Below, in pieces: positions 12,651 to 48,600 of a DNA stretch of 64,000 bases. The DNA lies in assembly GCA_965153355.1 (NCBI GenBank), contig OZ231126.1:4092001-4156000 (forward strand), read 5' to 3'. How positions within the stretch are numbered: the first letter of the stretch is position 1; each line of letters starts with the position of its first letter. The notes beneath the pieces were generated by a model. It was given only the letters and a program-made list of their open reading frames with translations, searched no databases and was not told the DNA's origin. Made by a program: the position numbers and the translations under genes. The DNA comes from Flaccisagitta enflata. Taxonomy: Eukaryota.

Positions 12651-13625
12651 CAATTAAGCTTCCCTCAAGATGATAGGTCTTTTCACTCGATCATTTTTTT
12701 GCAGGTTCCTCTTTTTTCCTTTCTCGTGACCTCCAAGCCTCCATTAAGCATAATTACAGAGATGCGATTTCTCTTTGAAAATGAACCACCATTTTGGCAA
12801 TGAAAAAGGAAATGGGTTGTCTAGACGCTGAAACCCATCCTAGGCATTCTTTAATTCTCATCTTAGGTTAAATGGCCCAACCTCAATCACTCACCGGAAA
12901 TGCCTCGAGGCTGTTCTACCATCAAGGAAATAAGTTTACTAACGCTGTCAATTTTGAAAGAGTGCTTATTTTGATGAAAGTACAAATTAGCTATTGGTTA
13001 ATAGCTTTAGATTTGTTATATTTGAAACGGGTAAGATAACTTTTCAAAACTGGATCATTCATTTATTGTAGTTCTATTCCTTTTCTTTGCGCTTTGAATC
13101 TTATCGCATTTTAATTCCAAAGATACTTTTTACTAAGGAAATCTTCCAATATTTGCGCGAATTTTTATTGAAACATTTTCTAATTTCCGGTTTCAAAAGA
13201 GACTCAAAATAAAAAACAGCAAAATTTCAGAACTGAAAAAGTAAGGAGTTTATTGGCAGTTAAGTATTTCTGATGCATATAGGAGTAATATCTTTCTAAA
13301 GTTAATGCTACTTTTAAAGTTTGGCTAAAGTTTTAAGTGTAGTTATACTTATTTTCAAGATAGCATGACAGTGTTCTTCATGGCTAGCTGTTAATTGTAC
13401 CTCATGGCTACTTGTTAATTGTACCGGGCGCTGACGCTGTCATGATGCCGCTGCCGGAATGAATCCACTTCTACCGGTCAACGGCAAATCATATCCATAA
13501 AACCAATCCAAAAATCTCCCAATATGGAACTACATTTCAGCCTGATGGGAACTCCGACTCGAGTAGACCAAAATTTGATTTGTATATTGATCTTTGTTGC
13601 GTCCACAAGTGAGCGACGTCAGACT

Positions 13626-13803
13626 TATTAGTCGCGTGCACGCGACTTTACAACCCGCTTTGTCCGTCGGCTGGTCGGTCACGTTTTACTTTTTTTTTTT
13701 TTTTTTTGGCCCCACTTCTCCTGCCCAAATGGTCAAGTGACTTCAAATATGGCCCCTTCCCACCCGCACGTGACTAGGGTAGCCATGTATCCGGCCTTGT
13801 TTT
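13626..13803 (+). mobile_element. Short non-autonomous Helentron/HINE(DINE-1)-like element, family A; other copies at 14143-14308(+), 20183-20365(-), 33262-33407(+), 41783-41965(+), 44367-44510(-) and 55465-55658(+)
   Basis: Shared layout: T-run, 5' palindromic AGTCGCGTG..CACGCGACT, (GTCG/GTCC)n microsatellite, GCCCACCCG plus a 3' subterminal repeat, GCCGTGTATCCGGC hairpin, then CTTGTT into a T-run, with no TSD. The classification is inferred from structure. Confidence 0.7.
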
Positions 13804-16138
13804 TTACCCTTCCCACCGACCGAGTGACTGTCTGCTCTTATTAGACACGCGGTTTTCTTAATCAAAAAGTTCATCCTGGACTATGTACGTCAAAAGAGGG
13901 CAGCTTCTATTACGTCCATCATTTAGTATGAAAATATTTTCCTTTGAATTGGGGGGGGGGGGAGAGACTCATTTTCTTTCTGGCTTTCTTTCTCTTGCTT
14001 TGTTGCCTTTCTTTCTTTTTTCCTTTCTTCCTTTCTTTCTTCCTTTCTTTCATTATTTCTTTTTCTCTCTGAAATATCGCGGGCGATCATCTTTCGCCTA
14101 CTTGATCTCAAGCCGAGCCTTCAACATTTCATTCCGCCGATTTTTTAGTTGCGGACACGCAACTCTATAAGAGGCTTTGTCCGTCCGTCGGTTGGTCGGT
14201 CGGTTGGTCGGTTGGTCCGTAGAGGTGATCGAGTCAAAAAGAGGGAAAACTCGCATTTCCGCCCCTGCCCACCCGTCTGCAAGTGGTGGCCGTGTATCCG
14301 GCCTTGTTGAAAAAACACACTGGTTGAAAAAAAAAGACTAAAAACTGAAGTTGAAAAACAAGAAATATATCATTGTATAGTGAAAAATGTTGCCTGAAAG
14401 CGGAGATTAGGAATGGCGCAAAGTTGTTGGATTTTCACACAAACTGAAAAAAAATTAGAATTTTTGGTGCTTCTTTTTTATATGATTTTTTTTTCTCCTG
14501 ACGATGCAATGCCTCTCTCTCTCTCTCAACTGTCTAGATCTATTTTTCTACGAGCATCATCACACGATCACGCGTTCTCTTCTTTGATTTGCATTTCATT
14601 TTGTGATTTGTCTACTGAGTTGTTTTTTACTACGGTATGTTTTTTTTTTCTCTTTCTTTGCGTTTTTACTATCCCGTCCAAAATATGTCAAAACTGTTAT
14701 TTAAAGAAATTATTTCCTCGGCTTCCTTTTTCTACAGCGTACATCCATCATGTTTTTTTTTTACCGCTTCATTGAAATTCCTCAATGCGTCCATAATCAT
14801 TATCACTATCATTGTCATCAGCATCATCATTTTCATCATTGTTGTCATCATCATTGTAATCGTGTATTTATAGATATTAATTTCTTTTACCTCGCTGACA
14901 CTTTCGCGCGCTTAAAAAAAAGAATTTAAAAACGCAATGGATTCGCTCACAAAATCTTACATCTAGTGATATAACCGGTCGAGGGCAGTGATAATCGTAG
15001 ATTTCATAAGTAACTAATGATTCTTAATTAGGTAGGATTCGAGAATCGACGGGCCAACCATGATATATATGTTGAGTGAATAAATGAATTTAATTTAAAA
15101 AACAAACACAAATACAGCGTAGGGCAATTGGAACAAACTTGCTTTCAGGGATAGTCAATGAAAGCCGATAAAAGCGTTTACTTTGTAACATTAATTTTAA
15201 GTTTAAAGTAATTAATATATTTCACTATGAAATGATTAGGTACTATTTCTAAAGATAATGTTTAAAAAATCTTCTAAGGCACTTTCAATATGATGGATAA
15301 CTTTAATTCAATCGATGAGAAAACTTATATCACATATTTATCATAGCTGGTCCGCCGTTTCCCGAAATATGCCATAAGCAATGTTGTTACGAGTGACTCA
15401 CGGGCCTCCGCGGTGGAATTTTCCCGTTTAAAAAAGCTGCGAATTTTAATATTTCCTCGTCGCGAAACGCATTTGAACTTAGTTCCTGCATATTCCGAGA
15501 TGTTGGATCAAATCCAACTTTTAAGCTCGTGTTTATTTTCATTGTAATTAAAAATCCATAGTTGCCAAGATTATGTCCGTCAAATTTCGATTTTTAAAAC
15601 GGAAAGAGCGAATATACGAAATGGTTACAAGTTGCAAAAAAAAAAGGAAAACTGATCTGTGAACATTAAAAAAAAAAAAAATTATATGAACAATTTCGCC
15701 TAATGAATGTTTATTTTTATCGAGAAATCTCTCTTTTTTGTGTCCGTATTCTTTTAAATGACGTATTATTATTATTATTTGCGTACAATTGATTAGGTAA
15801 GAAAACAGAACGAAGGAAATCGATTCATGCATGGTGATAATCACACTCGAGAATCAATCAAATCAATCAAAAAGAATAATACAAAAACTTGCTTCCGTGT
15901 GTCAAAAACACTATAAAGTATATAAGCGGCTCTCGGTGGAAAAAAGAAAAAAATAAAGCAGCAAGTACAAATATATAAGCAATCAGAAAATCCTTCATTA
16001 TAGTGATTTAAAAAAAAAAAAAGTCATTCTTTTTTTCCCCCGTGCGCTACGGTTGACGTCTAGCAGGAAAAAGCGCGAGAGACGCAAAAGTTATCATTTA
16101 AAGTATAGACGAGAAAGACGCAAAAAACACCGCCAACC

Positions 16139-17755
16139 ATGTTGAAGTGGATAAACAGTGACGGGCGTAATAAGAATCCGGAAGTGTTCGAGACGGTGGT
16201 CGAGGGTCTCAAGACCATCTACAAACAGAAGATCTTCCCATTGGAGGAGCATTACCGCTTCCACGACTTCCACTCGCCCGTTCTGCAAGAGGCCGACTTC
16301 GAAGCCAGACCCATGATCCTCTTAGGTCCTGTTTCTAGTTGTGACAATCGCGTTTTGAAAGGGCCACTCGGTCGCTCGCTACGTTCGTTCGCTCGCACCG
16401 CTCACTCCGCTCACTCGCTCCGCAGCGCTCCGCTGCGCTTCGCTCGCTTTGCTCGCTTCGCTCGCTCGCTCCGTTCACGGGCTCGCTCACTCACTTCGCT
16501 CACTCCCTCGTGGGACAGTGGAAATTATAGAATATGTGTTCACGCTGTAAATGTGTTCAAGGGGAACAAACGCGTTTTACATCTTCACTGGAAACACGCC
16601 CTTAGTCGGCCAATATTCAACCGGCAAAACCACCTTCATCAAGTATCTGTTGGAAAGGGATTTTCCGGGGATTAGGATCGGACCGGAGCCGACCACCGAC
16701 CGATTCATAGCCGTCATGTACGGAGATCAAGATGGGGTGAGTTTACAAACGAGCTGAGAGAGCGAAGGGCGATGTGTAACCGAGTTTGTATTGGCGATTT
16801 ATTACTTTGGTTGTATGATATTCAAGCTGGAATACACTTTTTATTTTTTATAAGAACCTAGTTTATAAGAACATCAAGGCTTTAAATAGCTTCAGAATTA
16901 AGAACATCTTAAGAACATATGAAAGCTTCAAATTATGAGAAAAAAAAATGTTAATGTTAAAACTAAAAATTTTTTTGATAAAACACTTTAAATAATATGA
17001 TTACTATAAAATTTTATTTTTTTTATTATTTTTAATCAAAATAATAAAAGAATATCACCAGATATCACAATTTAGTATCTACTTTAGTATTTACTAACAT
17101 GTATGTATTAAGTATTATTAAATAACAATGAATTATAATGTTTGTTATAGCTTTTATAGTACAGTTAAGCTTCACTAGAAGGCATTTGAAGGGACTGAAT
17201 CATTCTATGCCTTCAAGGCGGGATGCCTTATTGCCGAGTATGACTTTCTCTATGGTTTAGATTGATAATTGTTTCTCTCTTGTAGACAATACTTGTCAGA
17301 TTGTCATGCCATGTGTTAGGAAAATTACATACGTACTGATAAACATAGTGCAACTTGAAGATTGTAAGATACCAAGTGACGGACCGAGTGTGGATGAACG
17401 CAGCATGTGAGAAATGCAGACAAATTTTTGTCTAAAATCAAGGCCAAGAATTTTACCAATTTTATGGGTCACGATCTATTTCTTACTTCTTATTCAAAAT
17501 CAAGTTAAGATAGTGAATGGTAACTCGTGGCTTTGGGCGGCATTCTTTCTCCCAATTTCGTATCGTCATCATCGTCATTTGAAGTCGATGATATCTGCAA
17601 CCTCGGTTTCATCTTGATCGTCGATCGCCATCGTCATGGCAATGCATCAAAATCGGGATCATCGAAAACGCCATTGAAACTTGGGAATCACCGATATCAA
17701 CATCACAAACATCGCTCTTAGAAACCAAGACCTTCATTCTTCTTCTTCTTCTTCT

Positions 17756-17802
<47 letters not shown>

Positions 17803-20800
17803 TTCTTCTTCTTCGTGCCTTCCAAGCGAGCACGAAAAACCGTAATTCATACCTATTTTATGCCTTCTAGTGAAGTATGCCTTATAGGCGAGTGCGCTAT
17901 AGACGGGTTTTCTTAACAATAGAATTAAGGCAAAAAAGTTGGGACTTTTGATAATGTGCCATTTAGCGAGGGATGCCTTATTAGCGGGTGCGCTCTAGTG
18001 AAGCTCGACTGTACTTGAAATTAAGAACGCTGTAAGAACGTTGAAGGCTTGATTTGACCCTAAAAATAAGAACATAAAGCCTTTGAAAAAAAAATGACGT
18101 TCTTATAAAAAATAAAAAGTGTACAACTGTGAATCGGTTGCGCTCAACTTGTGCAATGCAGACATGAATGCAGCTTAGCTCGCTTGCATCCGTTCAGCTC
18201 CGATATCGCGATAGTTGCGACAAACCGGAAATTAAATTTCTCTCTTTCGATTCATGTAAATTTTCGATCCTTGGTATTATTCCCAGAAAGTAAGTATTGT
18301 TGGTTTGATATCATTATGTCATGGACTTAAACCCAAACTGTTCTTACCAACCTTTCCAACCAACTTACACCTCAGCTCTTGTCAAAAGACGGTGTCGATA
18401 AGTGGGGGAATTGCAGGGGATGGAGGGGAGGGGGGGGGGGGAATTTGTTCTGCAGTTACTCAGTCGGGATAAACGTGAACGTGCCCCTAAAGTTACTATT
18501 TTGCCGTCGTTAATCTTTTTGTCCATCTTTCCTAAATTGTGAAATCATCCAAATTCCTCTTGTTACATCGTTAACTTGATTCTTTATATTAACCCTAATC
18601 ATCTTTGTAACTTAAATCTAAGCTAATACATTCTTCATTGATTTGTCCTTATTAGGTGGTTCCCGGTAACGCGTTGGTGGTCGACCCTAAGAAGCAATTT
18701 CGTCCTTTGTCCAAATTTGGCAACGCCTTCCTTAACCGGTTCCAGTGCTCACAAGCCAAAAGCGACGTTCTCAGATCTATCAGTATTGTCGACACCCCAG
18801 GAATCTTGTCAGGTAATTGCATATGAATTGAGCAGGTCATTGTTGGTCTACTTGATACTTAGTTTTGTTTGTCGAGTGGAGTCTCCTAGGAGTTGTGTTT
18901 TACCAGTTATAAGTCGCATATCTAGGATATATATTGGATGATGTAGGATCAACCGAAATCCAGTTTTACCGTAACTCTTTTGTCAACCCTCGCTTTTGTA
19001 AACCCCCCCCCCCCATTTTGGATGTTGAGGCATGGTGGCGCTTAGGGGTAAACTATCTGGCTCTACTTTGTTTGAACGTTTCGTGTTCTATGTTGTGACA
19101 GTTTTAGAATTTGAAATAAAACACCAAATGAACCCCAATCTCTCTAAACTCTTTTAACGTACCTGTCCCTTTGTTCCATCTCCATTGACTCCACTCTTGA
19201 CCAAACTTCCCCCTCCCTCCCTCCGACCCCACGCCGTTTTCTTCTTCCCCCCCCCTCCACCCCCCCTCACAACATCCAACGACAGGCGAGAAACAGCGCA
19301 CCGATCGCGGCTACAATTTCACGGGCATCCTGGAGTGGTTCGCCGAACGCGTGGACCGCATCTTGCTGCTGTTCGACGCCCACAAGCTCGACATTTCCGA
19401 CGAATTCCGGCGCAGCATCGAAGCTCTCCGCGGCCACGACGATAAAATCCGCATCATCCTCAACAAGGCCGACATGGTGGATCATCAGCAGCTGATGCGC
19501 GTCTACGGCGCCCTCATGTGGTCCTTGGGTAAAGTCCTGGCCACGCCGGAAGTGGCGCGCGTCTATATCGGCTCGTTCTGGGATCAACCTCTGCATTTCG
19601 ACGCCAACCGGAAGTTGTTCGAAGCGGAAGAGCAGGATCTCTTCGGCGACTTGCAGTCTTTGCCGCGCAACGCCGCCTTACGGAAGCTCAACGACCTCAT
19701 CAAACGCGCGCGACTCGCCAAAGTCCACGCCTACATCATCAGTCATTTGAAGAAGGAAATGCCGTCCGTGTTTGGCAAAGAGGGCAAGAAGAAGGAGCTC
19801 ATCAACAAGCTCCCCGAAATCTACGAGCAAATCCAACGCGAACATTCGATTTCTCCCGGGGATTTCCCGCCCATCGAACGCATGCAGGAAGTCCTCGAAC
19901 ATCAAGACTTTAGCAAATTCAACCTCTTGAAACCGAAAATGTTGGAGACGGTGGACAAGATGCTGGCCGAGGACATCGCCAGATTGATGGCGCAAATCCC
20001 GCTCGAAGACGGCGCCAAAACTGGCGGCGAAGTCGAAGGAGGCGCCTTTCAGGTACAAGTTCTTTTTTTTTTGGGGGGGGGGGCCCCCCCTCTTATAGTC
20101 GTGGAGACGGATGTTTTGGAAGGCGAGTTTTCGCCAGTCGATTCCTTCATTTGCACGTCGGTTCATTGGGACTCGTTGAGAAAAACAAGGCCGGATACAC
20201 GGCTACCCTAGTCGCGTGCGGGTGGGCAGGAGCAGTGCTGGATAAGGTCACCAGGGCATCTGGGCAGGAGCCATATGCTCAAAAACGCCCAAAAAGTAAA
20301 AGGGGACCAACCAACCGACGGACCGACATAGCGGGGTGTAGAGTCGCGTAGCACGCGACTAAAAACGCAACTGCCAGAGGCGTATGACAGTGGACCGCCA
20401 CGGCCTTGTCTGATGCACCGACTCTGTGCGTCAAACCTCAAATGAGCACAAATCACGCATCTTTATACACTTTTTGGGCAGCGGCCCCGAAGGGGCCGAT
20501 GACCTATGCTTTCACACAGGGGAAATTTTTCCTCCTCCTTCTCCAGCGTACCCCCCCCCCCCCAGCCTCAAGCCTCAGAGGCCAAATTCTAGCCTAGATG
20601 TCTAATTTCCAGTCACCCGCCCCTAAATCCTAGCCTCAAAGCCCGAATTCCTACCCCAAATCTCAAATTCTAGGCTCAAAGCTTAAATCCCAGCCTTGAA
20701 GCTCAAATCCCAGCCTCGAGGCCCAAATCTCAGCCTTGTTGCTCAAATCTCAGCCTCGAGGCCCAAATCCCAGCCTCAAGGCCCAAATCCCAGCCTCAAG

Positions 20801-21728
20801 GCCCAAATCCCAGCCTCAAGGCCCAGATTCCAGCCTCAAGGCCCAAATCTCAGTCTCGTTGCCCAAATCCCAGCCTCAAGGCCCAATTCCAGCCTCCAGG
20901 CTCAAATAAAAACAGCATAGGTCATCGGCCCCTTCGGGGCCGCTGCCCCTCTCACCGCCTCAGACCCTCATACACTCACTTAGGGGCAACGGGTACCGCT
21001 GACCATCTAACGCTTTTGCGACTATTATTTTTTATAAGAACGTCATTTTTTGGCCAAAGCCTTTAAAAGAGATAGAGATAGCTACTAATAAATTAACTAT
21101 GATGTTCTTGATTTTAGAGCAATTTCAAGCCTTGACGTTCTTATAAACTAGGTTCTTATAAGAAATAAAAAGTGTACACGCTTTCTTTATGAGATAAACA
21201 ATTATTCCCTTGAAACCACGACATATGTGAATAACTGCCTTTATCCCCCCCCCTCCCCCCACCTCTTCCCTCCGCCGCCGCCTTACACGTCCCTCACCTT
21301 TTCTCAAACCAAACCACAAACAGTCTGTCACCGACCCGGAAGTGTCTCCCTTCGGTTACGGACGCGGCGAGGGCGTCGACGCCGGTCGAGGCGAGACGGA
21401 TTGGGTCGTCGGCCACGAAAGATACAAATACGACGAAAAGTTCGACATGTTGGATCCCATCAACGGCAAAGTCTCGGGGGCCAAGGCCAAGAAGGAAATG
21501 GTCAAATCCAAACTGCCCAATAGCGTGTTGGGGAAAGTGTGGAAATTATCGGATGTCGACAAGGACGGCCAATTGGACAAAGACGAGTTCGCTTTGGCCA
21601 TGCATTTGATCCAAGTCAAGTTGGACGGGCACGATTTGCCGGATGAACTGCCCACGCATCTCTGCCCGCCGGCGAAACGCGGCGGCGGCGCCGATGGGGA
21701 AGGAGGACAAAATGGATTCTACGAGTGA
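16139..21728 (+). CDS. EHD1: EH-domain-containing protein (EHD1/Past1/RME-1), dynamin-like ATPase, 548 aa
   Basis: Exons 16139-16325, 16606-16736, 18656-18812, 19286-20052 and 21324-21728 (1647 nt, phase consistent). Motifs: PMILLVGQYSTGKTTFI (P-loop), IGPEPTTDRF, DTPGILSGEKQR, NKAD, and a C-terminal EH domain (LPNSVLGKVWKLSDVDKDGQLDKDEFALAMHL). Confidence 0.96.
16325..16601 (+). mobile_element. PIF/Harbinger-type MITE forming EHD1 intron 1 (Introner-like; intron 16326-16605)
   Basis: TTA target duplication at 16322-16324 and 16602-16604. Imperfect TIRs GGTCCTGTTTCTAGT / ACTGGAAACACGCCC (12 of 15 match). Internal CGCT-rich repeats are shared with the copy at 45501-45748. Confidence 0.9.
16835..18121. 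mobile_element. Tc1/mariner-type MITE with TA TSD; related fragments at ~8335-8407 and ~21025-21176, and a related element at 47701-48173
   Basis: TA|CACTTTTTATTTTTTATAAGAAC...GTTCTTATAAAAAATAAAAAGTG|TA. Confidence 0.8.
17162..18011. mobile_element. Tc1/mariner(pogo)-type MITE nested in the 16835-18121 element; contains a (TTC)n tract at 17737-17814
   Basis: TA|CAGTTAAGCTTCACTAGA...TCTAGTGAAGCTCGACTG|TA. Confidence 0.75.
20471..21028 (+). mobile_element. Helentron/HINE-like element, family B, with an internal 20-bp minisatellite (CAGCCTCAAGGCCCAAATCC); other copies at ~26570-27087(-), ~53570-53988(-) and ~57683-58348(+)
   Basis: 5' TTTT-GGGCAGCGGCCCCGAAGGGGCC, inverted subterminal GGCCCCTTCGGGGCCGCTGCCC, and a conserved GGGCAACGGGTACCGCTGACCA near the 3' end, all shared between copies. 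Confidence 0.7.
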
Positions 21729-23773: not shown

Positions 23774-27303
<3,530 letters not shown>

Positions 27304-30300
27304 ATGTCGCCTCGCAAACGCGCCTCCTCTCGAGCTCAGAAGGCATCACGGTCGTCGCCAACCAGCGGCAAAGGTCGGTGACATGCACAACCACAACCAC
27401 GTCAATACCAATACTGGAATACTAGTACTGGAAAGAGTATCTGGCCCAGAGGTGCCGATTCTGTGTAGCATGGTAGCAATGCTACGCGGCAGATAAGCGC
27501 TGAAGTGCAGCAGATATGGCTAGCCCAGGGCCATACAGGAGTGAGAGGAAAGAAGGAAGGAGGGAAAGACAGAATAAAAGAATAAAGAAGGAAAGAAAGA
27601 AGGTTGGAAAAAAAGAATGAAGGAAGGAAGGAAGGAAGGAAGGAAGGTCGGCCAATGTGTAAGTTTAAGGAAATCTGCGCAGGTGATCTATTTGACCTGT
27701 AATCAGTGGTTCTAATCCTCATTTTCATATTGCAGTTTTTTGTCCCCGACGAACAGTTTTCGTCGGTGACTATGTGATAGCAGTGATGCGTTGTCTGTTA
27801 CTCTGTCTGTCTGTCTGTCTGTGTCAAACCCTCTCATATCTTCTGAACCAGGCCTCAGAAGTTTATGAAACTTTACCAGTGTTATTTTTATGTCAATGGG
27901 AGCTTGTGTACCAATTTTCAAAAAAATTCATTAACTTTTACTACCCTTTGCCTATTATTTTTGTAGTAATATTTTACTGGACTTAGGCAATTTACATAGG
28001 TAGAGGGTAGTAAAAGTATGTGAATTTTTTTATAGTTTGGTATACAAGTAAAGGGTACTAAATAAACAACCCCTGCAAAATTTGAATTAAATCTGAGGTC
28101 TCTTGTAGGAGATATTAGCTTATCTATTTATTTAGTAATATGTTACTAGGACTTAGGCGATTTACATAGGAGGGTAGTAAAACTATGTGAATTTTTTTTA
28201 ATTTGGTATACAAGTAAAGGATGTCAATTGAACAGCCCCTGCAAAATTTGAATTAAATCTGAGGTCTGGTTAATAGATGATATTAGCTTATTAAAGTAAT
28301 AATATGTTGCTAGGACTTGGGCAGTTTAAATAGGCAAAGGGTAGTAAAGGCGTGTGAATTTTTTTTCAATTTGGTATACAGGTAAAGGATTTTAATTGAA
28401 CAGCCCCTGCAAAATTCGAATTATATTTGCAGTCTGGTTTATAAGATATTAGCTTATTTATGTATTAATGTTACTATTACTTAGGCGATTTATATAAAGG
28501 ATTGGAGTTGATGAATTTTTTTACTTGCTCATTCATTACATTTTGATTTTTCTTAAGGTTTGCCAACATGGATTTCAAGATTCATCTTCATTCTTCAACT
28601 ACAGTCATCATCTTCAACTACAGTCATCATCTTCAACTACAGTCATCATCTTCAACTACTGTCATCATCTTCAACTACTGTCATCTTCAACTACTGTCAT
28701 CATCTTCAACTACTGTCATCATCTTCAACTACTGTCATCATCTTCAACTACTGTCATCATCTTCAACTACTGTCATCACCTTCAACTACTGTCATCACCT
28801 TCAACTACTGTCATCACCCTCAACTACTGTCATCACCTTCAACTACTATCATCACCTTCAACTACTATCATCACCTTCAACTACTATCATCACCTTCAAC
28901 TACTGTCATCACCTTCAACTACTGTCATCACCTTCAACTACTGTCATCACCTTCAACTACTGTCATCACCTTCAACTACTGTCATCACCTTCAACTACTG
29001 TCATCACCTTCAACTACTGTCATCACCTTCAACTACTGTCATCACCTTCAACTACTGTCATCACCTTCAACTACTGTCATCACCTTCAACTACTGTCATC
29101 ACCTTCAACTACTGTCATCACCTTCAACTACTGTCATCACCCTCAACTACTGTCATCACCCTCAACTACTGTCATCACCCTCAACTACTGTCATCACCTT
29201 CAACTACTGTCATCACCCTCAACTACTGTCATCACCTTCAACTACTGTCATCACCTTCAACTACTGTCATCACCTTCAACTGTCATCACCTTCAACTGCT
29301 GTCAGCTAACTACTGTCATACTACTGTCATCATCTTCAACTACTGTCATCACCTTCAGCTACTGTCATCACCTTCAACTACTGTCATCACCTTCTTTCAC
29401 TGTCATCACCTTCACCTTCTGTCATCACCTTCAACTACTGTCATCACCCGCAGCTTCTGTCATCACCTTCAACTTCTGTCATCACCTTCAACTACTGTCA
29501 TCTGTTCAACTATGTCATCATCTTCAACTACTGTCATCATCTTCACTACTGTCATCTTTTTGACATTTTTTAAAAAAATTTTTGTTGAAATTTTTTTGAA
29601 ATTTTTTTAGAAATTTTTTTAGAAATTTTTTTTGAAAAATTTATTGAAAAATTTTTTGAAAAATTTTTTGAAAATTTTTTGAAAAATTTTTGAAAAATTT
29701 TTCGAAAAATTTTTTGAAAAATTTTTTGAAAAATTTTTGGAAAATTTTTTTGAAAAATTTTTAAAATTTTTTGAAATTTTTTTTTTGAAAATTAGGTTTA
29801 AAAATTTTTGGAAAAATATAAAAAAAATTTTCAAAAATTTTTATGCTCCAAATAAACCACTGGGAAAAGCCGATCACTTGGTCTTGTTTCCCTTGTGTTT
29901 GCGGAGGATAATCTAGCAGAGGACAATTATTCTTTGACTTGGTGAGTGATATTTGTTTTTAATTTGGTATACAAGTAAAGGGTACTAAATAAACAACCCC
30001 TGCAAAATTCGAATTAAATCTGAGGTCTGATGTAGGAGATATTAGCTTATCTATTTATGTAGTAATATGTTACTAGGACTTAGGCAATTTACATAGGTAG
30101 AGGGTAGTAAAACCATGTGAATTTTTTTTTAATTTGGTATACAAGTAAAGGGTACTAAATAAACAACCCCTGCAAAATTCGAATTAAATCTGAGGTCTGG
30201 TGTATGAGATATTAGCTTATTTATGTAGTAATATGTTACTATGACTTGGGCAATTTACATAGGTAAAGGGTAGTAAAACCATGTGAATTTTTTTTTTAAT

Positions 30301-31085
30301 TTGGTTACAAGTAAAGGGTATAAATTAACAGCCCTGCAAAATTCGAATTAAATCTGAGGTCTGGTGTATGAGATATTAGCTTATTTGTAGTAATATATTA
30401 CTAGGACTAGGACTTAAGCGATTTATATAGAGGATTTGGTTGTTGAAACTTTTTACCTGCTCATTCATTACATTCTGATTTTCTTTAGGTTTGCCATCAT
30501 GGACTTCAAGGTATGCCATCATGGACTTCAAGGTATGCCATCATGGACTTCAAGGTATGCCATCATGGACTTCAAGGTATGCCATCATGGACTTCAAGGT
30601 ATGCCATCATGGACTTCAAGGTATGCCATCATGGACTTAAAGGTATGCCATCATGGACTTCAAGGTATGCCATCATGGACTTCAAGGTATGCCATCATGG
30701 ACTTCAAGGTATGCCATCATGGACTTCAAGGTATGCCATCATGGACTTCAAGGTATGCCATCATGGACTACAAGGTGTGCCATCATGGACTTCAAGGTAT
30801 GCCATCATGGACTTGAAGGTATGCCATCATGGACTTGAAGGTATGCCATCATGGACTTGAAGGTATGCCATCATGAACTTGAAGGTATGCCATCATGGAG
30901 TTCAGGGTATGCCATCATGGACTTCAAAGTATGCCATCATGGACTTCAAAGTATGCCATCATGGACTTCAAAGTATGCCATCATGGACTTAAAGGTGTGC
31001 CATTATGGACTTGAAGGTATGCCATCATGGACTTCAAGGTATGCCATCATGGACTTCAAGGTGTGCCATCATGGACTTGCTTTAA

Positions 31086-31118
<33 letters not shown>

Positions 31119-34100
31119 TTTTTTGAAATTTTTTTTTTTGAATTTTTTTTTTGAATTTTTTTTTTGAAATTTTTTTTTGAATTTTTTTTTTTTGAAATTT
31201 TTTTGAAATTTTTTTTCTTTTTTTTGTCGTGTATCTTCTCGAGTCGCGTTTACGCGACGAGAAAGCTTCAAAAATTACAGTCCCCAGTCGGGGACTGTAA
31301 TTTTGAAGCTTTTTAACTTCATATAAACCAATGAACATTCTTAAACAAAAAAAGTATTTTCTTATTGTCGGATCATGATTTATATTAATGACAATAAAAA
31401 GCCTCATGACAACGAAAATAATCGAGTATGAATGATTCAATTCTAAAATCTGTTTTCCATCAAATATCTAGCAGTTTTGTTTGAAGGGATCATTAGAAAG
31501 AGAAAATGACACGATTTGGCGAAATTATACGATCCGATGGTCTTGGAGACGCTGTCAGTCTCAGTCAACCATGCGGCATCTCGGAAGCGACCCCACGCCA
31601 TGCTCTTGTGACTATCCTTGGTTGCTAAAATGGGACTGTTATGATGGTGTTTGGACTGGGCTGGATACACGGCAAGATGGTCACGGTTGGTTTGGCAGGG
31701 GCAGTGATGCAAAAACCGCTCGCAATTCAGGATTAAGATGGACCTACTGACGGACTTATATGGCAAATTCTAGAGTCGCGTGTCCGTGACCAAAAACGAT
31801 TGAACTTTGTTAATTTGCATTAGTTCTTCACCATATCTGCGGCTAAGTGCACCTGAGACTCCTATATCACTGACTTTTGTTTTTAATGGGGGTGCAGTCC
31901 TACACACTATCCACAGCCTAGTTGTAAATTTGAAAAGTGCGGCAGCTTCTGCTGTATTTTTTTATGCTACGCGGCAGTTTAGCAGATTCGGCACCTCTGA
32001 TCTGGCCAAACACCCCCTCCTCATTGAAAGAAATTCTTCTTGAAACTAACAAATCTTTGCGCTTTCATTTATGATCGAATGATCAAAATTTACATATCTC
32101 TTTTTCCTTTCCTTCCCCAACCGACAGGGAATCTCAAAACTCCTATTCCGGAATCGCCTCCCAAGAACAACTCTGCCGCTCAACCCTCAGAATTCTCATC
32201 ATCATCTTCTTTTACCTCGAAAGACTTTTCCACCGCTCCCTCCTCCTCCTCCAACTCTTCCTCCTCCTCCTCCACACGAACGGGATTTTTGTGCATTCTC
32301 TCCGCTTTCGCCCTCAGCGTTTCGCTTCTGTATTTTCTCTACACGAAAACTCCGCAGCTCACAGGTGACTTGATCGCTCTCCGCTTACGTCTCTTCCTTA
32401 TTTTCTTTCCCCCTTTTCTGCCTAATTCATTCTCTCCCTCATGTGTTCTTCCCTTCCTGTTATCTTGCGCTTTTGTAGGTTCTTACTGGAATTTATTCTA
32501 TCCATTGCTCTATCCCGCTTTCCTTTCTCCCGTTGCCACCCGCCACCCACCCCCCACCCACTAGTTGTATTTCCCCATTCCTTCCCCCCTTCCATTCTTT
32601 TTATCGTTCCTCCTTTGTTTCCACCACAGGTCTTGAATCCCTGAGTGCGTCCTCCACAAGACCCTCTTCAGCCAAAAAGTTGACTCTCTATACTACTCCT
32701 TGACTCATCTCTCCTCATTGCTTGTATTCTTTATCATTCTTTCTCTCTTTCTACCCCCCACCCCCGTCGTTTTATTGCCATTCTATTCTTTTTATCGTTT
32801 CCTCCTTTGTTTCCACCACCTTGCATCCTCAGCTTTGTCCCCCTCATGCTTCAAGACCCTACATAGCCCAGGTCTTTAAGTTGATTCTTTACAAGTTGAT
32901 TCTCAACCACTCATCGCTCTCTACCGCCCTGTTTCCCCCCCCCCCCCACTTTTCCCCGCAGACGAAGAGCGGGCTCTGGTCAAATATCCTCGTTCTTTGG
33001 AGGACGCCAAAGGGTTGGCCCAAGTTCTCTCCGCCTACAAAGACGATCATTTCGGCTACATCGTCTTGGGCTTTTTCGCCATCTACAATTTCCTGCAGAC
33101 CTTCGCCATTCCGGGCTCCATTTTCCTCAGCATCTTGTCCGGGTTTTTGTTCCCTTTTCCTCTCGCGTGTTTCCTAGTCTCGCTCTGCTCCGCCCTCGGC
33201 GCCTCTTTCTGCTATCTACTCAGGTGGGAGAATTCATAGAATAATTCAGTCTTTGTCGCCATTTTTTAAGTCGCGGACTAGCGACTCTAGGACTTGCTGT
33301 GTCGGTCTGTCTGTCGGTAGGTAACGAAAACCAAATGCGAACGTTCTTTTGCTATTCCGCTCCTGCCCACCCGTCCGCGACTAGGGGGGAATGTACACGG
33401 CCTTGTTATGTGCGTCCTCGCACATATCTAAGAGGTCACGTATGTCCGTTGGTCGATCTGTCTCTGTTGCCTGTTGGTCCGTCGCGCTGACGTTAAAACC
33501 GCGCATTAAAAACGCCGATTTTAGCGTCTTCATTCCTGTGACCTCGCATGAGTTTCCACATCCAATTTCATTCCATCGTACATTCATTCCTTCTTCATGT
33601 TCATTTGTTCATTCATCGAAAACGTTTATTCATACTTTCTTAATCTGCGAGGCACACATATTGGCCGTAATTTGACCTTGTTGTCAATTATCCCACCTCT
33701 TCCTCCTGACCCCCACATCTGAAATAATGAACCTCACTCTTTTAATTGTTTTATTTACCTTTGACTAATTTCTTTTCCTGCTTTGGCTGGTCAAAATACT
33801 TGTCTGAATGGATTATCTAATAAAGATTCCAGTAGAGTATTTTTTTTTTCTTCTCAGCTTAAGGAGTAACAGACTTTTCTTGTTTTCAATAAAAAAAAAA
33901 TGATCTTGAAAAAAAAATCGAATGTGGCTAAGACTAAGACAATACAAGCTTTACCTAAGCAACGAGTGTTCTGAGAATTCTCCTATGTATCATCGCATAT
34001 TATTCCCATATTGCAGTTCTTTCGTGGGTAAGCCTTTGATGCATCGATATTTCTCGTCCCGCGTCGAGGACTGGAGGCAGACGGTCGATCGTCAACGTCA

Positions 34101-37100
34101 TAACCTTCTCTCCTACATCATCTTTCTCAGAATTACTCCATTCCTTCCCAACTGGTAAGTTAGTAGTGAGACAGACGGTCGATCGTCAGCGTCATAACCT
34201 TCTCTCCTACATCATCTTTCTCAGAATTACTCCATTCCTTCCCAACTGGTAAATTATGCGTGAATCTTTTTAGAAGATGGTATGGTGGGGATGATGATAA
34301 TACCGGATGGAACGATAGTCACCAAATCACGCCGACTTCCAGATCTCGGGATGGTAGGTGGGCCTCTAAAGGTGGGACCCACAGGAACAGTCTTCCATCA
34401 AAGAAGCCCAAAGAAGGTTGTTGCCACGCGTTTAGGATGAGCAGCCATGAGTTCTAAGTCCGGTTGTACCCACTTATATCACATGAGAAGGGCCTTTTGA
34501 GAGAGATGGTAGATGATTAGACCAGGGACTGACACAAACCACACTAAACCTACTTTCATCACATTCAACCACCGACTGAAGCAAAATGTAAAAGAACATC
34601 GTAAAATGAGAATGATAAACGAGTAATGTGGCAATAAAGGAATAACAATGCCCTGTAGTAAATATAAAAGTATTTGGGCTAATATTGGGTCTAGCATGGC
34701 TATTTGAGAGCTTTATGAATATACAGTCATTAGCCATGATTATTGATGGTAGTTCATGGGTCCATGATTCATTTTGGGCAGTGAAGACTGGATGGACGGC
34801 CTGGAGGATGGAGATGGACGTGATGGTTCTTGATGAGGCGCCCATCTTCCAGGGGTATCGACCGCGTGACCTCGTAGAGAAGAGAAAGGGCAAGAATTGA
34901 GATCCTAACAGTCGATTGGCCGGACTAAGACAGATGGCCTCATCTGTACCAGCGTACAGACTGTGATGGACAGAAGACTTGGTCTCTGTGCCATGCAACT
35001 TTGATTCATGGTGAATCAAGCAACAAACACCTGGGATGATGTCGCTGATTACCGAGAACCACCAAGGCACGATAGGATTCACATCTGCCATGGACAGTGT
35101 GTATAGTCGACTGAATTAGGAAGACCTAGAGGTCGGATTTGCGTAATGGTATGAACAGTCTGCAACAAATGAGCGATATGGTAGTAAATATCTGAGGATC
35201 GGAGAATCGATGTCGTAGAAGGGTCCGGAGTAAGATGGACAAACGCCCGGGACGTTGTCATGACGTTCGAATTGTAACTAATCCCTAACTGAGTAGTCGA
35301 CGTCTAAGGAGGAATGAGAGCAGTTTAAGGGAATGAATGGTTCCGCGATGTAGAACGTTTTAGTCGAGAGATATGGAACAGCGAGAAAAAAAAATCATCA
35401 ACCCTTACTAAACTCGTGAGGTAGGTATTGGGAGGCGATGAAAGAAAGCCAAACCAAACTCTGACCAAATGCTTGACATAGGTCGAGTGGGGCCTTTTCC
35501 TATTTTTACCTGAAACTTACTCTCGACATGGCTGCAACTAAGTCTCCATCTCCTCCACTCGCTCCTCCGGTATTTGGGAATTGAGCCGCCGGATCAATCG
35601 GCGCAGATATTTTATTCGCTCTTACTTCCTGAAGTATTTCATCCATTGTAAATTTCATTTCGTCCATTGTAGAATTCGTTTTGTGACGCCACTCTGATAG
35701 ATTCGCTGAAAGTTGTTTCTGTCCTTCCTTGATATCTTCAATGTCGTCGGAATTTTTTTCACTCTGTCGGAGAGGGCCGCGATGGTAACAGCCTCTGCCG
35801 TTTCCTTCTTTTTCTTCTTCTGCTTCTTCTTGGATTTAGATTTTTTTCGTGCCTCGAGGAATGAGGCGCCGTCGTTATCGTCGCCGTCGTAGTCGTCGCC
35901 ATCATTGGAAGAGGAATCGGAAGAATTAGAACTGACGTCATGAGCCATCTCGTACCTGCACGCAACGTCAAGAGCCTTGTCCCACGTTAGGTCAGCTTCA
36001 CTGTGGAGGTAGTACTTCATGTGACGTATCTGGTTCTTATCCCTCTTTCCTCTCCTATCTCGAATTCCCTTCCGGAAGCGCCGAATTCCTTCTCTTATTT
36101 TCGCTGAGTTTTCCACTTTTCTTTGCCCAACGTTGAAATGATCCGGCATGTCCGAGTAACGATTCAGGTCCTTTTTGACTTCCTGTGCAAAATCTTTGAG
36201 GCTCTGACCTTTCTTACGTTTTGTGTATTCAAAATCCTCCTGAAACCGTTGTTTTTCTTGAGGGTCGGTAAATTCTTCCGTGAGCTTTAGTACCATCGAG
36301 AAGTAATTCTCTTTTTCAGCATCAGTAAGGCGATGGTACGCATCCAACGCTGTTCCAACTTGGAGACGTCCGGAGATTGACCTGACAATTTCTGCATCCA
36401 CTTCGTCTGTCTGATCGTGCGTGAATCCGAATGCGTACCTGATCTTCTCTCTCAGGCCATTCATCCAAATCCCGAAATCCATGGTTGGTTTGTAGTCGGG
36501 ATAAGAAATACATCTTCGGCGATAAGCATTTGTCAATTCTTGACCAGATTCTTGATCGTCGTCCGCCATGATCTAAGGACTCAGCTGGTTATCGGATTAG
36601 GGGGATATGTTGAACGTTGGCTGAAGTCTGGTAATGATCTCGGCCCTGGACCTCGACCAAAAGAGAGGGAGCAAAAGTGAGATGGGGAAACTTTTGCTCT
36701 TTTGGAGCGCAAGTCTCTGGAGAAGATGGGATGTTTCAGGCGATCGGAAAGAAAGTTCTGCCAGGCGTCTGAAGATTCTCGTTTGTTCGTCGCGAAGTTG
36801 TTGATCTATAAAGCTGTCTATATACAGTCACCCTTGGGGCGTGTATCTACAATTTATTTACAAATGATCATTGAAATAAAAACCGATAAAAACTTGGTCT
36901 CACGCTGGGCTAAAACCAAGTGGGATCGATTTGTGTCTCGAGACTGGCCGTATAAGATAGTTTGGATTTGGCCATGGAATGTTAAAATTTGCAGTAATAA
37001 GCAGTCCGGAAATTATTGATGAGTACAGTTTGAAATTGTTAAGAGTTCCGGAATAACGCAAAATGGAAGCCGCCACTCCACCTTAATCAAATCGGGAAAA

Positions 37101-42668: not shown

Positions 42669-45600
42669 CTACTGCGCGTTCTTGACAAGTGGCAGTGGCT
42701 GATGTTCCAACTCCAACGTGGAAGACTTTTCTTCCGTCCCCGTCTTCGTCGTTGCAGCGTCTGTCTCCTCTTCCTCTTCATCAACGACGTTGACATCGAC
42801 GTCATTCTCCGATGCGGATGTCGTCGACGCCGGCCGATCACTAAGCCGTCCCTCGGCCACCTCCTCTTCCCCTTCACCCTCTCTTTCCTCTCCCTCCTCA
42901 ACGATTCCATCTCTATTAGCCGTATTCATTCCCACCACATTCGGCGAAATCTGCAAGTCCTCGTTATCGTCGTTTGCTTTCGGTTTGAGGAGGAGGTGAT
43001 CGGCCACCATCTCGACCACTCCTCCTCCTCCTCCTCCACCAGTGGCCACTTTCGCCGTCGCGTTGGAGGAAGTGACGGGAAGTGACGCCACTGAAGACGA
43101 CGCGGAAGATGTCGACGGTCTCGAGAGATCCTTGACGACGGCATCGTCGAGTGCGGGCGGCGAAATGGAGACGCGGGTCGACGATCTCTCCAGCTGAGTC
43201 GGCGGCGCCATTTGAGGCGGCGTTGACGTCAGCATTCTCCGCGCCAGTAACGACGATGACGCGGCGGCAACAGCGGCGTTGGAATAGCCGGAAGCCGAAG
43301 CCGCCGCGGCCTGAGTGGAAACTCCCATCGCTCCTTTCCCATTCTTCTCCCTTCCATCTCTTTGATGCAGCTGCAAATCTCTTTGCACGGACGGTTCCAC
43401 GTTGTATTTGGAGTTGAGCATAGCCGCGACTTTCTCCAGCGTGTCCCGCGGACTCGTGTGTTCCTTGATCAAGTTGATTTGATCGTAATAAGTGGTGTTG
43501 CGCTTCTTGCTCAAGTCGAGGATGTGATCTTGCATGGAAGCGGGTTTGGGTCGAGGTGGATTCGACTTGGAGACGAGGTTTAACGGCCCCAAAGGAGGTG
43601 GGGAAGAGGAGGAAGTGGAAGAGGATGTTGTCGCGTTGATCATCATCATCGACATCATCGCCGCCGCTGAGGAGGAGGAAGACGATGATGCCGACGGTGG
43701 CAGGAAAGATGAGGAAGAGGAAGGTGACATTGCGTGATGCCGATCGCGGTGCAGCGAATCTCTGCAGATGACAAGTGGAGAAAAATAAAGGTGGTTAAAA
43801 CAAATCGGTTCTTACGAAAACCGAGTTAGTACAGTAGATGTCGTCTAGACTTGGAAATACGGGGGAGCTCATAACTTGAGCATCAATACAATGAGGGGAT
43901 TGATATCTTGCTGGTGTTATGTATAGACTCTAAGGGGTTGACGATGGGGTATGGCATCCCCCTACGGCTTACCTTACAAAAAAAACTTTTAGTATAAAAT
44001 ATAAGGATCAATCATTTTTATGGCAGAATTTCAGCTTCATTCATTTTCTTTAATTGCAAAACCAGCCTGGGATTCGAACCTGGAACCTTCAAAGAAACAA
44101 ACTGATCACAAGAATTCTGAAGTTCAGTAAGTTAACCACAAGACCAATTCCTGCAACTGTTTAAGTGGAGTGAATTGGAATTAGTATATTCAAAAAAAAT
44201 TTCTATCCTCAAGAGCTGCCATACCCCATCGTCAACCTTATAGGACATAAGCATTATACACACACAGTTTCATTTCACTGGTGTAAATGGTAGTTACGAT
44301 ATAAGGGCCCCCCTATTTACAAGTATAGACGACATCTACTGTACTTTCTATGACGGAAATGCTAATAACAAGGCCGGATATACGGCAATACAGTCGCGGA
44401 AGGTTAGGGAGAAGCGGTAATGCGAAAACCGCTTTCAATTCAAAAATGAACGGACGGACGGACCGACCGACCGACACGGCAAGGTGTAGTCGCGTGTCGG
44501 CGACTAAAAATATGTATTGTATAATTTGCAATTGCTTGCTATCGTATCTTGTTCGTCGTCTCAACGACTAAATCTTCTCTTTCTGTTGCCCTGGTTGTTC
44601 AAAGACCGCGCGGTAATGGAATGAATGAATGAAACTTTGTGACATGTTACCTGGCAGTTTTAAACACGTCTGTCTGTTCTCCCAAGATGTCCATATGATC
44701 TTGATCTAAATGCATTCTAAGAATGGCGGCGGAAGGGAAGGCCTTGTCGCAGATCCGACAAATGAACGGATGGAATGGAGAAGAGGGTAACCGACCGGCA
44801 TCCTCGGCGCATCGCTGCAACGCCATCTGTTGGGAAGCGGGAATGAGGGAAAGGAGATTAAGAGATATCTGATCGACTGACGTATAGAACGAAAATCGCC
44901 ATCGAAGAAAATATGTGACAGTTAGAACAACGTAACGTTACTAAATGAAATGAGTCTTACACTCATCAAATGCCCCAAAAAACTAATGGTTGTCACAAAG
45001 ACGGCTTAAATGCAGGCCTGATTTTTGTGATTTTTCTCACCGAGCCAGTTGGGCTCGCTCCTCACAATTTGACAGAGCCCGAAAGGAAAACCATGAGACC
45101 GGTAAAAATGTCATGCCTAATTTTACAATCATATCAGCCTAGTTTTATAAAAGAAGCTAATGATTATATGATGTAATGATGAAATAATCACTTCAAAGAT
45201 GATTCAGTTTGTGAAAAAAATCGTAAAACGACTCAAAACTTGATGATTTTTCATACATTTCACTGAATCAGCTTGAGCACATTAAATCCATCCCATCAAT
45301 GACAGAGAGCCAGCCGGGCTCAGAGCTTGCAAAACATGAGAGCCCGAGAGCAAAATAGAGAGCATCGGGCTCGCGGGCTCGCTCTAAAATCAGGCCTGCT
45401 TAAATGTAAGAAATAGCCATAACCTTTGGAAACCATTGGAGCGTTACTCAACAGCATTTGACGACCACTAATCGTAATAATTTCATGACAGTCAAACTAA
45501 GGGGGCGTTTCTAGTCAGAGACAACCGCGTTTTGAACTGGCCACTCGGTCGCTCGCTACGTTCGTTCGCTCGCGCTCACTCGCTCCGCAGCGCTCTGTTT

Positions 45601-48600
45601 TGCTTCACTCACTCGCTCCATTCACAGGCTCGCTCACTCACTTCGCTCACTCCCTCGTGGGACAGTTGGAATTCTTGAATATGTGTTCACACTGTTATCG
45701 CGTTTCACAGGAAGAAACGCGTTTTTGGCGCTCACTAGAAACACGCCCTAAGAAATATCTCGCCAATGAGACTGACCTCTCTGAATTTGTTGGAGGAAAA
45801 GTCCAAGTAGTTGAGATCGCCGAAGCCCAAAGGCTTGGAGGCGATTCTGTTTTCGCTGAGGCCGAGACTGCTGCTGCTGCTGCTGAGGCCGAGACGATGG
45901 ACGCTTTGCACGTGCAACGAAAACTCGCGCGGGTTGGTAAAGGTCAAGTCACATTCCGGACACGCGCTTGCCACCTGACAAGAGAAGAAGCGAGATGATT
46001 TTATGGCTCAGATCAGTGAGATGTTCAAAATACAGACAAAAGTGAAATACAAGAAGATAACCCCCCAAAAACTGTAGCACCCCCCCTACAGCCTCGACTG
46101 TAGATTAAAGAAAGACATATAAGATAGGGAATGGAAGCTTATATCAATACAATTAGCCTTATTAAAGCGATTTTGGAATTTCATTCCCAGTAAAAAGTTA
46201 TAGCTAAAAAATTAGTAAAAAAATTTAGTTAGTTTTTAAACTGTAACTCTTAACTGGGAATAAAATTCCAAAAATCGCTCTGATGAGGCTAATTGTATTG
46301 ATATAAGCTTTTATTCTCTATCTCACATGCAAATTTTCATTCAGCGGTTGCGGCTGTAGGGGGGTGCTAGTTTTTGGGGGGTTAACTTCTTGTATTTCAC
46401 TTTCGTCTGTACATACATGTACATATCTCGGACAACAAGGGACAGTTAAATTTTAGTTCATCAGGTGTTATTGAAAGGTTTCTGCCATTGCCAATGTAGG
46501 AAATTAAGAGTAATGGCTTAAACTTTAAAGGGATGAGGTCAAAGTTTGTTACAGGCGGATTTCCGTTACTCTCGGGTCCATTACAGCGGGGTAGAACTAA
46601 AGACACCATTTCCTGCATACCGCTGCGCCTTTGCTGTGTTCTTCCATGTGAAATTTGTATCCGATTTCCGAGAGGAATGTTTTGGAGCATATTGGACAAG
46701 TCAATTGAGACGCCGGAGAGTATCGCGATGATGCCGACGACGATGTTGACGAGGCCAAATGAGGAGGAGGAGGCACCAGCGGCGGTGGTAGTGGCAGTGA
46801 CCCGGCTAGACCCTCACTTTGCTTCGCCGTCGTCTTGCCCAGGCTTGTCTGTGCGAATAATGGTCGGTCGGTTTATTACAATGACTTGATAAAAGTTTAA
46901 ATGTCAATGCGTTAAGTGTATAAATTGCCAGTGTAGGAATTGTGAGACATCGATTTTCTTACCCCAGCTTCTTCTGCTTGCTGCTGCTGCTGCTGTTGCT
47001 TCTTTCTTTTCATCGCGTATTTATCCGCCTTTGTGGGTTTCCCAGATTCGCCGCCATTTTCTTCCGGTTTCTTCTCTTCGCCTGAGTTGTTTAGATGAAA
47101 ATTTACATTAGCAACTAATATCATACTTAGTCAACTACCGCGAGCTCAAACACTGCACCGATACGTACATTCAAACGCCGATGCATGGCGTACTAATAAC
47201 TGTGCCAGCGCAATGCGGCCTTGTGACGTTAATTGTAGCTGTATCATTTGCCTAAACCTGAGAATTGTTCAATATTCCGACAGTTTTAAGTAGGGATATG
47301 GAAGCAAGTGACTGCTTTCAATTAAGAGGATGGGATAGCTACAAGTATCGCCGATACCATTGGAAATGTAAAATGGAAGCGGAAGCGGAATCAAAAGCGG
47401 CAGAAGCGGCATTAAAATCGACCGCTTCCACATCCCTAGCACTGAGCTTTGCTTCCGTTTTCTTCCAGCAAAAACTCACCATTAGCAGCGGCGGCGACGG
47501 CGTTGGCCGATTTCCTCTTCCTGCCCCTGTTTCCTTTGCCAGAGTACTTTTCCTGTATCTCCTCCGCGGTCGTTGTTCCTTCGCGTTCGTGAATGCGCAA
47601 ATGACGGTGCATGTTGCCGTTAGTCGTAAAGGCCATGCTGCACAACGGGCACACGAATGGCCGCTCGCCTAGTGGGGGGGGGGATGAGGGAAAGTGGATA
47701 CACTCTTTATTTTTTTTTAAGGACCAGTAAATTTTTTTTGAGCCTTGGATGTCTTTATATTATCAAAAATTTGAGGCTGTTCTTAAAATGTCTTTAATTT
47801 TTTCTTCGCAAGGCAAGTATCTAACTATTGTCAAATGTAACTATACCTAACTAAATAAAATATAAAAAAAATAGATATGACAAATTGGTTTTAAAAGAAA
47901 ATAAACTTTTCAAACTAAAAACACATCAACAATTCAACATAAAGCAGGTTCTTATGAAAACAATCACAGCACTTTTTTTCTAACACTGCCAATCTTCTTG
48001 AGAGAAAATTTTTGCCGAGGCCGAATTTGAGAATTTGAGAATCTCACTTGAGAGAAGATTTTTGCCGAGGTCTTATTTGAGGCTGAGCCTTGTCCTTAAA
48101 ATGTCCTTAATTTTTGGCTAAATCTCAGCCTCAATGTCCTTATAAACTTTGTCCTTACTCAAAATAAAGAGTATATATGACAAGAGGATGGTAAGGTAAG
48201 GTAAGGTTGTAGCGCCCCTAGGCGAACTCCTGTTCGCATTGCGGGGGCCTCGGATATCGCTCCTCTGTGTGTATAGTAGTTTTTTTTTCCTCGTTTCGTC
48301 ACCAGATCTGAGTTCATCTTTTTTCTACTATACATCTTTAGGTTTTTTCATTTTTCCATCCGTCATACGCCGTCTTAAACCCATTCACCGACTTTTTTTC
48401 TCTCACTTCATCTGGAATTTTATTCCAGATATTTGCAGCCCGTACATTAAAGAAATTTTTTCTAATTTCCAATCGGGCGGTTTCCACTTTAAGTACATTT
48501 TTTTTCCGTCTCTCTCCTTCCTCCGTGATCACCACGTTTTGTCTCGTTGGCCTTTGTCCTTCATCTTCAACCTCGAACCATTGCGTCTTATCCACGTGGT

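Follow-up and report, generated by a model that had tools for sequence, protein, structure and literature searches.

The 64-kb stretch of DNA analysed here, referred to as the window, carries on its forward strand a complete gene for an EHD protein, an EH-domain, dynamin-like ATPase (Table 1). The gene encodes an N-terminal helical part, the P-loop GQYSTGKT, the EHD helical domain and a C-terminal EH domain, and the 62 amino acids specified by the first part of exon 1 align to the N-termini of EHD2 and EHD4 (E = 5e-17). Its three ordinary introns are all of the GT-AG type, with donors that read GGG/GTGAGT, CAG/GTAATT and CAG/GTACAA and have a purine at +3 in every case, and the exons beyond the first are all open. 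Exon 1 of the window differs from the sequences of three DNA runs (X1, X2 and X3) at positions 16177, 16282, 16288 and 16656, and all four differences are synonymous, which, with the other exons open and the introns GT-AG, indicates that the gene is under constraint. Intron 1 contains repeats of very high depth at 16819-16935 and 17872-18222 (word depth up to 839,000 in X1), and a T10 G11 C7 run lies directly past the donor of intron 3 (20066-20095). Three reads of a poly-A RNA run (X23) fit the gene from 16131 on, preceded by about 106 nt of other sequence, a 17-nt piece of which is absent from the window at up to two mismatches; this leader could derive from a 5'-UTR exon located upstream, beyond the window, or else from a paralogue or a divergent allele.

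The remainder of the window is rich in repeats. Two direct repeats of 646 bp (34268-34913 and 37620-38262), 99.2% identical and 3.35 kb apart, resemble the LTRs of a young element, and the minus-strand ORFs between or within them (35658-36572, 34477-35115 and 37829-38383) gave no Pfam match. A family of three copies, each about 185 bp long and about 75% identical, occupies 13625-13804, 20181-20365 and 41783-41965, while long spurious ORFs arise from an extended (CT)n/(GA)n microsatellite and from a number of minisatellite arrays (24440-25130, 28500-29610, 30420-31110 and 38890-39550). A VTT/TMEM41-like exon was recognised by eye at 32880-33239, where Pfam returned no match, and a multi-exon C2H2 zinc-finger gene extends over 42669-47759 on the minus strand.

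Table 1. Features of the EHD gene, its exon 1 insertion and the related MITE copy, in window coordinates
Feature	Position	Strand	Remarks
EHD exon 1, part a	16139..16325	+	ATG at 16139; last base is the first of the split Val codon
TTA duplication, left copy	16322..16324	+	
Non-coding TIR element, MITE of PIF/Harbinger type	16325..16601	+	277 bp; sub-family with 5' end GGTCCTGTTTCTAGT
5' TIR	16325..16339	+	GGTCCTGTTTCTAGT; source of the GT at 16326-16327; 12/15 complementary to the 3' TIR
Candidate intron	16326..16605	+	280 nt; TAG/GTCCTG ... CCCTTAG/TCG; absent from X1, X2 and X3 contigs
3' TIR	16587..16601	+	reverse complement GGGCGTGTTTCCAGT
TTA duplication, right copy	16602..16604	+	its A and the native G at 16605 form AG
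EHD exon 1, part b	16606..16736	+	P-loop GQYSTGKT; E = 3e-20 to EHD4
Stop codon met if the element is retained in mRNA	16673..16675	+	
Conventional intron 1	16737..18655	+	GGG/GTGAGT ... TTATTAG/GTG
EHD exon 2	18656..18812	+	
EHD exon 3	19286..20052	+	Pfam DUF5600, the EHD helical domain (E = 2.4e-48)
EHD exon 4	21324..21728	+	EH domain (E = 6.3e-21) and stop
Second MITE copy	45501..45748	+	248 bp; TAA duplication 45498-45500 / 45749-45751

Exon 1 of the EHD gene is interrupted by a transposon insertion. The site reads ...CCC ATG ATC CTC TTA/GGTCCTGTTTCTAGT...ACTGGAAACACGCCC/TTA GTC GGC CAA TAT TCA ACC GGC AAA ACC, such that the interrupted codons are those of L-L-V-G directly before the P-loop. 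Because G is the first base of the element and C its last, CTTAG stands on both of its sides (16321-16325 and 16601-16605), and taking out the 280 nt that begin with the GT at 16326-16327 and end with the AG at 16604-16605 restores the EHD frame exactly. When aligned to EHD4 (7sox_A), the sequence before the element (16139-16324) corresponds to residues 1-45 and that after it (16608-16736) to residues 47-89, and the EHD2 alignment likewise leaves one residue between the two parts of the exon; hence the split codon G/TC, encoding Val, fills the gap. The TIRs are imperfect, with 79% of positions matched over 19 nt when the flank is counted. That the element is not a chance arrangement follows from its match to the second copy in the window (E = 1.4e-59) and from the excess of the TIR motif, which at up to three mismatches was found six times in the window against 1.04 expected, four of the six being the termini of the two copies. 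An initial sequence-only reading of this DNA had placed such an element within L-L-V-G before GQYSTGKT, with a frame-exact GT..AG removal, and both the sequence and the EHD alignments agree; its two caveats were also sound, as retention of the element would shift the frame to the stop listed in Table 1, and the donor GTCCTG is weak, having C at +3. The element further contains an ATG at 16551, from which an open frame continues in phase into the P-loop exon (MCSRGTNAFYIFTGNTPLVGQYSTGKT..., 16551-16736); if used, this start would give an EHD protein without its first 62 residues.

The second copy of the element has 76.6% identity to that in the EHD gene over 273 nt, and sits in a conventional intron of the minus-strand C2H2 zinc-finger gene, where the donor, GTCAGT, precedes it by about 27 nt. 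Both copies are small and non-coding (277 and 248 bp), both are flanked by a duplication of TTA or TAA (TTA at 16322/16602, TAA at 45498/45749), and all four of their termini fit the pattern G(N)5GTT (GGTCCTGTT, GGGCGTGTT, GGGGGCGTT and again GGGCGTGTT). Termini of this form, together with a 3-bp TTA/TAA duplication, are the search criterion for PIF/Harbinger elements given in the available text of PMC2213677, and on these two properties the family is of the PIF/Harbinger type. The assignment to PIF/Harbinger MITEs with a TTA duplication that was first made by inspection is therefore upheld by target-site duplications, termini, small size and abundance alike. A piggyBac origin, which would entail a TTAA duplication, was ruled out, as the flanks give TTA and TAA. 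No Pfam match to a transposase was found among ten long ORFs or exons of the window, in which Rfam likewise identified no family, and exact-pattern scans with two conserved 22-mers recovered no stretches from JGI metagenome, prokaryote genome or viral contigs.

The MITE family is very abundant. The summed word depth in X1 is about 2.9 million for the element interior against about 130 for the unique flanks, a difference of four orders of magnitude that recurs in X2 and X3, although this sum is a rough guide to abundance and not a copy number, the interior being CG-rich and of low complexity. A protein search with the ORF that reads through the insertion returned, among its best 120 matches, 14 EHD N-termini and about 106 ORFs through other copies, the latter being spurious ORFs on separate short metagenome contigs. 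Two types of 5' end were distinguished within these best 120 matches: GAFLV, representing the GGGGGCGTTTCTAGTC end of the second copy and of contigs diverging at 16343 (53 ORFs), and GPVS, representing the GGNCCNGTNTCN end of the EHD copy (36 ORFs). The residue preceding the former was K (AAG, that is, TAA followed by G) in 24 of the 53, and that preceding the latter was L, the sole sense reading of TTA, in 14 of the 36, supporting a TWA duplication across many copies. A scan of the window for the combined TWA and TIR pattern at 12 or more matches of 14 returned the second copy only, and missed that in the EHD gene because it has 11 of 14. Both window copies lie in the context C-TWA-G (CTCTTAGTC and AACTAAGAA; n = 2). 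In maize, the consensus target of PIF is a 9-bp palindrome around TTA. An extended target preference around the duplicated site is more generally described for PIF/Harbinger elements in the accessible portion of PMC2836001, covering 9 bp in plants and 15 bp in vertebrates. With both copies in C-TWA-G, an AG would be made on the far side at every insertion into such a context, and to this extent the idea put forward in the sequence-only reading holds and can be taken further.

The state of the insertion site in other DNA was established by aligning the three DNA runs, and the RNA run from the same study, to positions 16000-19500. Contigs of all three DNA runs join 16320 to 16601, which, with the cut moved by +5, is the GT..AG junction 16325/16606, and skip the same 280 nt. 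The depth of the joined contigs is 134.8 in X1 (where the local unique depth is 83-135), 207.2 in X2 and 6.2 in X3. These contigs represent genomic DNA rather than spliced RNA, as they run on into introns: that of X2 begins at 16205, crosses the joint and reaches 16856, having entered conventional intron 1 by 120 nt; intron sequence is also present in X3 (18494-18645), and over 18099-19362 the depth of X1 is alike for exons and introns. At 16177 the window's T is replaced by C in all three runs, and at 16656 its A is replaced by C in X1 and X3, meaning the haplotype that surrounds the element in the window is unseen in their contigs. The same empty site was found in metagenomes, represented by a 90% cluster of the exon 1 protein with 14 members on 23 contigs. 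All 14 read ...RPMILLVGQYSTGKT... uninterrupted and then enter intron 1, read through as 'VS...'; in nine of them the first part of exon 1 is 100% identical to the window, and one (P0121) shares the start of intron 1 with it, while at least ten different continuations into intron 1 occur among the 14. No EHD N-terminus joined to the element was present among the best 120 matches of the read-through ORF.

Among all the DNA samples examined, the filled site was therefore seen in the assembled haplotype alone. The empty site in 3/3 DNA runs and 14/14 metagenome sequences identifies the uninterrupted exon as the ancestral and common state, and as it is carried by many haplotypes, recent insertion is favoured over excision. 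Hence the insertion is a rare, young, polymorphic allele, which provides direct evidence of the recency claimed in the sequence-only reading. That reading had also named a null or haplotype-specific allele as the outcome that would overturn it; the haplotype-specific part of this outcome is what the DNA runs and metagenomes reveal. The empty alleles also indicate that there is no older intron at this position in Flaccisagitta enflata. Three more distant EHD homologues from metagenome/Logan contigs (P0054, P0064 and P0078) carry, where Q meets Y in VGQYSTGKT, a short in-frame stretch of some 20-26 codons, which is probably a short lineage-specific intron; being 8 nt further downstream than the MITE site, it occupies another position. 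Other EHD homologues end exon 1 elsewhere, after LLEK, DFPG or VMHG.

The explanation we prefer, with a probability of about 0.58, is that the window has captured a young, low-frequency insertion allele from which removal of the element is most likely absent or inefficient. Under this explanation, a member of a very abundant and recently active PIF/Harbinger-type MITE family would have transposed into CTC-TTA-GTC within exon 1 of an otherwise intact, constrained EHD gene, duplicating TTA on insertion, with the assembled haplotype filled and the uninterrupted exon being the usual state of the population. By its sequence, the G-GT start and the far-end TTA-G would permit exact spliceosomal removal, but were this to fail or be inefficient, as is most likely, the allele would be a null or hypomorph, its transcripts frameshifted to the premature stop and probably subject to nonsense-mediated decay; its rarity and presumably heterozygous state would account for its being tolerated. 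Given how active the family is, it would not be unlikely for one reference haplotype to carry such a null in the heterozygous state. The insertion, its family, the target-site duplication, the polymorphism and the intact state of the rest of the EHD gene are the observations on which this explanation builds.

A rival explanation is that the element already functions as a nascent intron, an Introner-like gain observed at a stage when it still segregates, with its GT taken from a variant TIR and its AG from the duplicated TTA and a native G, such that splicing would remove the element with one copy of the duplication, leaving a normal EHD mRNA and a nearly neutral allele. We consider this possible, but clearly the less probable of the two. 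Several points speak for it. Firstly, the GT..AG removal is exact and restores the frame, with one residue left between the exon parts in the EHD2 and EHD4 alignments, and this geometry, being a requirement of any spliceable insertion, counts against a rare null. Secondly, the architecture, with one splice site from the element and the other from the target-site duplication, is that of Micromonas IE1 and other Introners. Thirdly, the C-TWA-G context of both window copies implies that the target preference itself would supply the AG. Fourthly, the T at position 3 of the element, which makes the GT, looks unusual for the family, as would be expected if only spliceable insertions in exons survive, and this too is a point against the null. 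The intact state of the rest of the gene also fits a functional intron.

The significance of this T can be judged from the family ends among the best 120 ORF matches. The commoner 5' end, GGGGGCG (53 of the best 120), has no GT at the needed place, and for ends of the GPVS type, all four informative variants (EP twice and RP twice, with no DP or SP) imply a purine at position 3, albeit as read indirectly from ORF residues in a small sample. The GT of the EHD copy thus appears, from these sequences, to be a peculiarity of that copy rather than of its family, and a rough estimate of the chance that it arose by accident, without selection for spliceability, is 1 in 20. The broader suggestion that this is an intron-generating family is not supported, as one of the two window copies is a candidate intron while the second is merely contained in a conventional one, and the family ends mostly lack GT.

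The remaining splicing signals are mixed. At the acceptor, a branch-like TTCAC lies 19 nt upstream and is followed by CCCTTAG, making this site no worse than the other EHD acceptors, two of which are likewise C/A-rich; furthermore, the TIRs can pair, bringing both splice sites together, and these properties are also arguments against the null. However, the donor TAG/GTCCTG is very weak, matching the U1-complementary consensus (as generally known) at -2 to +2 only, and the predicted fold does not exceed those of shuffled sequences in stability (z = 0.44), which speaks against a nascent intron and rules out RNA structure as a special feature. A U12-type intron, the donor motif of which is (A/G)TATCCTT, was ruled out by eye, the motif being absent from the donor. 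The RNA run, of which about 6 in 100 parts were sampled, placed 11 reads on the 3.5-kb stretch and left 16234-16350 and 16585-16701 uncovered, such that it contains neither a spliced read in favour of the intron nor data contrary to it. Eight metatranscriptome runs contain 0.07-0.20 of the sampled words and are neutral as to splicing. Moreover, joined RNA is no proof of an intron unless phased to the insertion haplotype, as the empty allele gives an mRNA identical to that produced by exact splicing. The absence of the allele from 3/3 DNA runs and 14/14 metagenome sequences also weighs against a nascent intron, although contigs of X1-X3 drop rare variants, and hence the insertion could exist in these samples at a low share. 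Meaningful exact splicing of the EHD copy is accordingly doubtful. Were it to occur, this would be a transposon-made intron at its birth in an animal, with a rare allele in an exon of an essential gene and exact spliceosomal removal of a PIF/Harbinger MITE; on the same tentative reading, each insertion would gain its acceptor from the preference for C-TWA-G targets, such that one G-to-T substitution at position 3 of the TIR would suffice to make an intron generator of an ordinary MITE.

Two further explanations concern the origin of the filled site rather than its splicing. The insertion might not be germ-line, having arisen somatically or in the sequenced material, or being a minority molecule chosen by the assembler; the two DNA runs with the best coverage of the region, X1 and X2, bear the same species label and yield the empty site alone, at full depth, and their sequence departs from that of the window both to the left of the element, at 16177, and to its right, at 16656. 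Yet the clean 3-bp duplication and complete TIRs are those of a true transposition and not of a chimeric join, and X1 and X2 may derive from individuals other than that assembled, quite apart from the loss of rare variants from their contigs, making this explanation improbable. Least probable of all is that the element has long occupied this site and that the empty alleles arose through precise excision, for although mPing left no footprint in 109 of 110 excision events in yeast, with one copy of the duplication removed, according to the available text of PMC2836001, and a site so vacated would look exactly like the observed contigs, the empty site occurs on differing synonymous variants (X1, X2 and X3) and with at least ten intron 1 continuations among 14 sequences, while the filled site is seen in the window alone.

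Several known systems resemble this locus. In Introners, as described in the accessible portions of PMC11282704 and 10.1101/2022.06.06.494994, the element brings one splice site and the duplication completes the other, leaving the mRNA unchanged; they are reported in copepods, and show a 6.5-fold excess in marine organisms (Gozashti et al., 10.1101/2022.06.06.494994). Like Micromonas pusilla IE1 and other TSD/TIR Introners, the EHD insertion is a non-autonomous TIR element of small size, flanked by a 3-nt duplication, in a marine host, and, judged by its sequence, its 5' GT would come from the element and its 3' AG would be completed by the duplicated target, with the coding sequence unchanged on removal. 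However, Introners are defined by hundreds to thousands of copies acting as introns with demonstrated splicing, whereas the EHD copy is a single candidate intron, with a weak donor and a family whose ends mostly lack GT. The element also resembles Tourist-like MITEs such as mPing, which, in the available text of PMC2836001 and PMC2213677, have TTA/TAA duplications, TIRs of at least 14 nt with G(N)5GTT, sizes of 100-500 bp, high copy numbers and precise empty sites; it differs from them in that its host is an animal and its TIRs are imperfect. A closer ecological parallel is the tunicate Fritillaria borealis, also a marine planktonic animal with MITEs in exons and TSD/TIR sequences at intron ends, in which exonic MITE insertions are neutralised by splicing (PMC11282704, in its available text). 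That species has AG-AC and AG-AT intron ends and an altered spliceosome, according to the same source (PMC11282704), whereas the EHD candidate is GT-AG and the three other introns of the gene are canonical. The proposed mechanism of intron gain is thus already known from Introners, and the value of this case would be that it is polymorphic and testable. In this respect it recalls Daphnia pulex, where intron gains are reportedly attributed to the repair of double-strand breaks involving short direct repeats, whereas the EHD insertion belongs to a repeated transposon family. In both, an aquatic invertebrate population is polymorphic for whether a newly arrived intervening sequence is present, as the available text of PMC4202315 describes for Daphnia.

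The meaning of this allele therefore differs between the two leading explanations. If the element is unspliced, the allele is a transposon-induced loss of function of the ordinary kind, captured by chance in a reference assembly, and gene annotation should not list the EHD insertion as a conserved intron. If it is spliced, it would be a dated, population-level case of intron gain from a DNA transposon in an animal, with the ancestral allele still segregating; synonymous markers at distances of 51 and 148 nt to the junction are available, and both the splicing efficiency of a newborn intron and its fitness cost would then be measurable.
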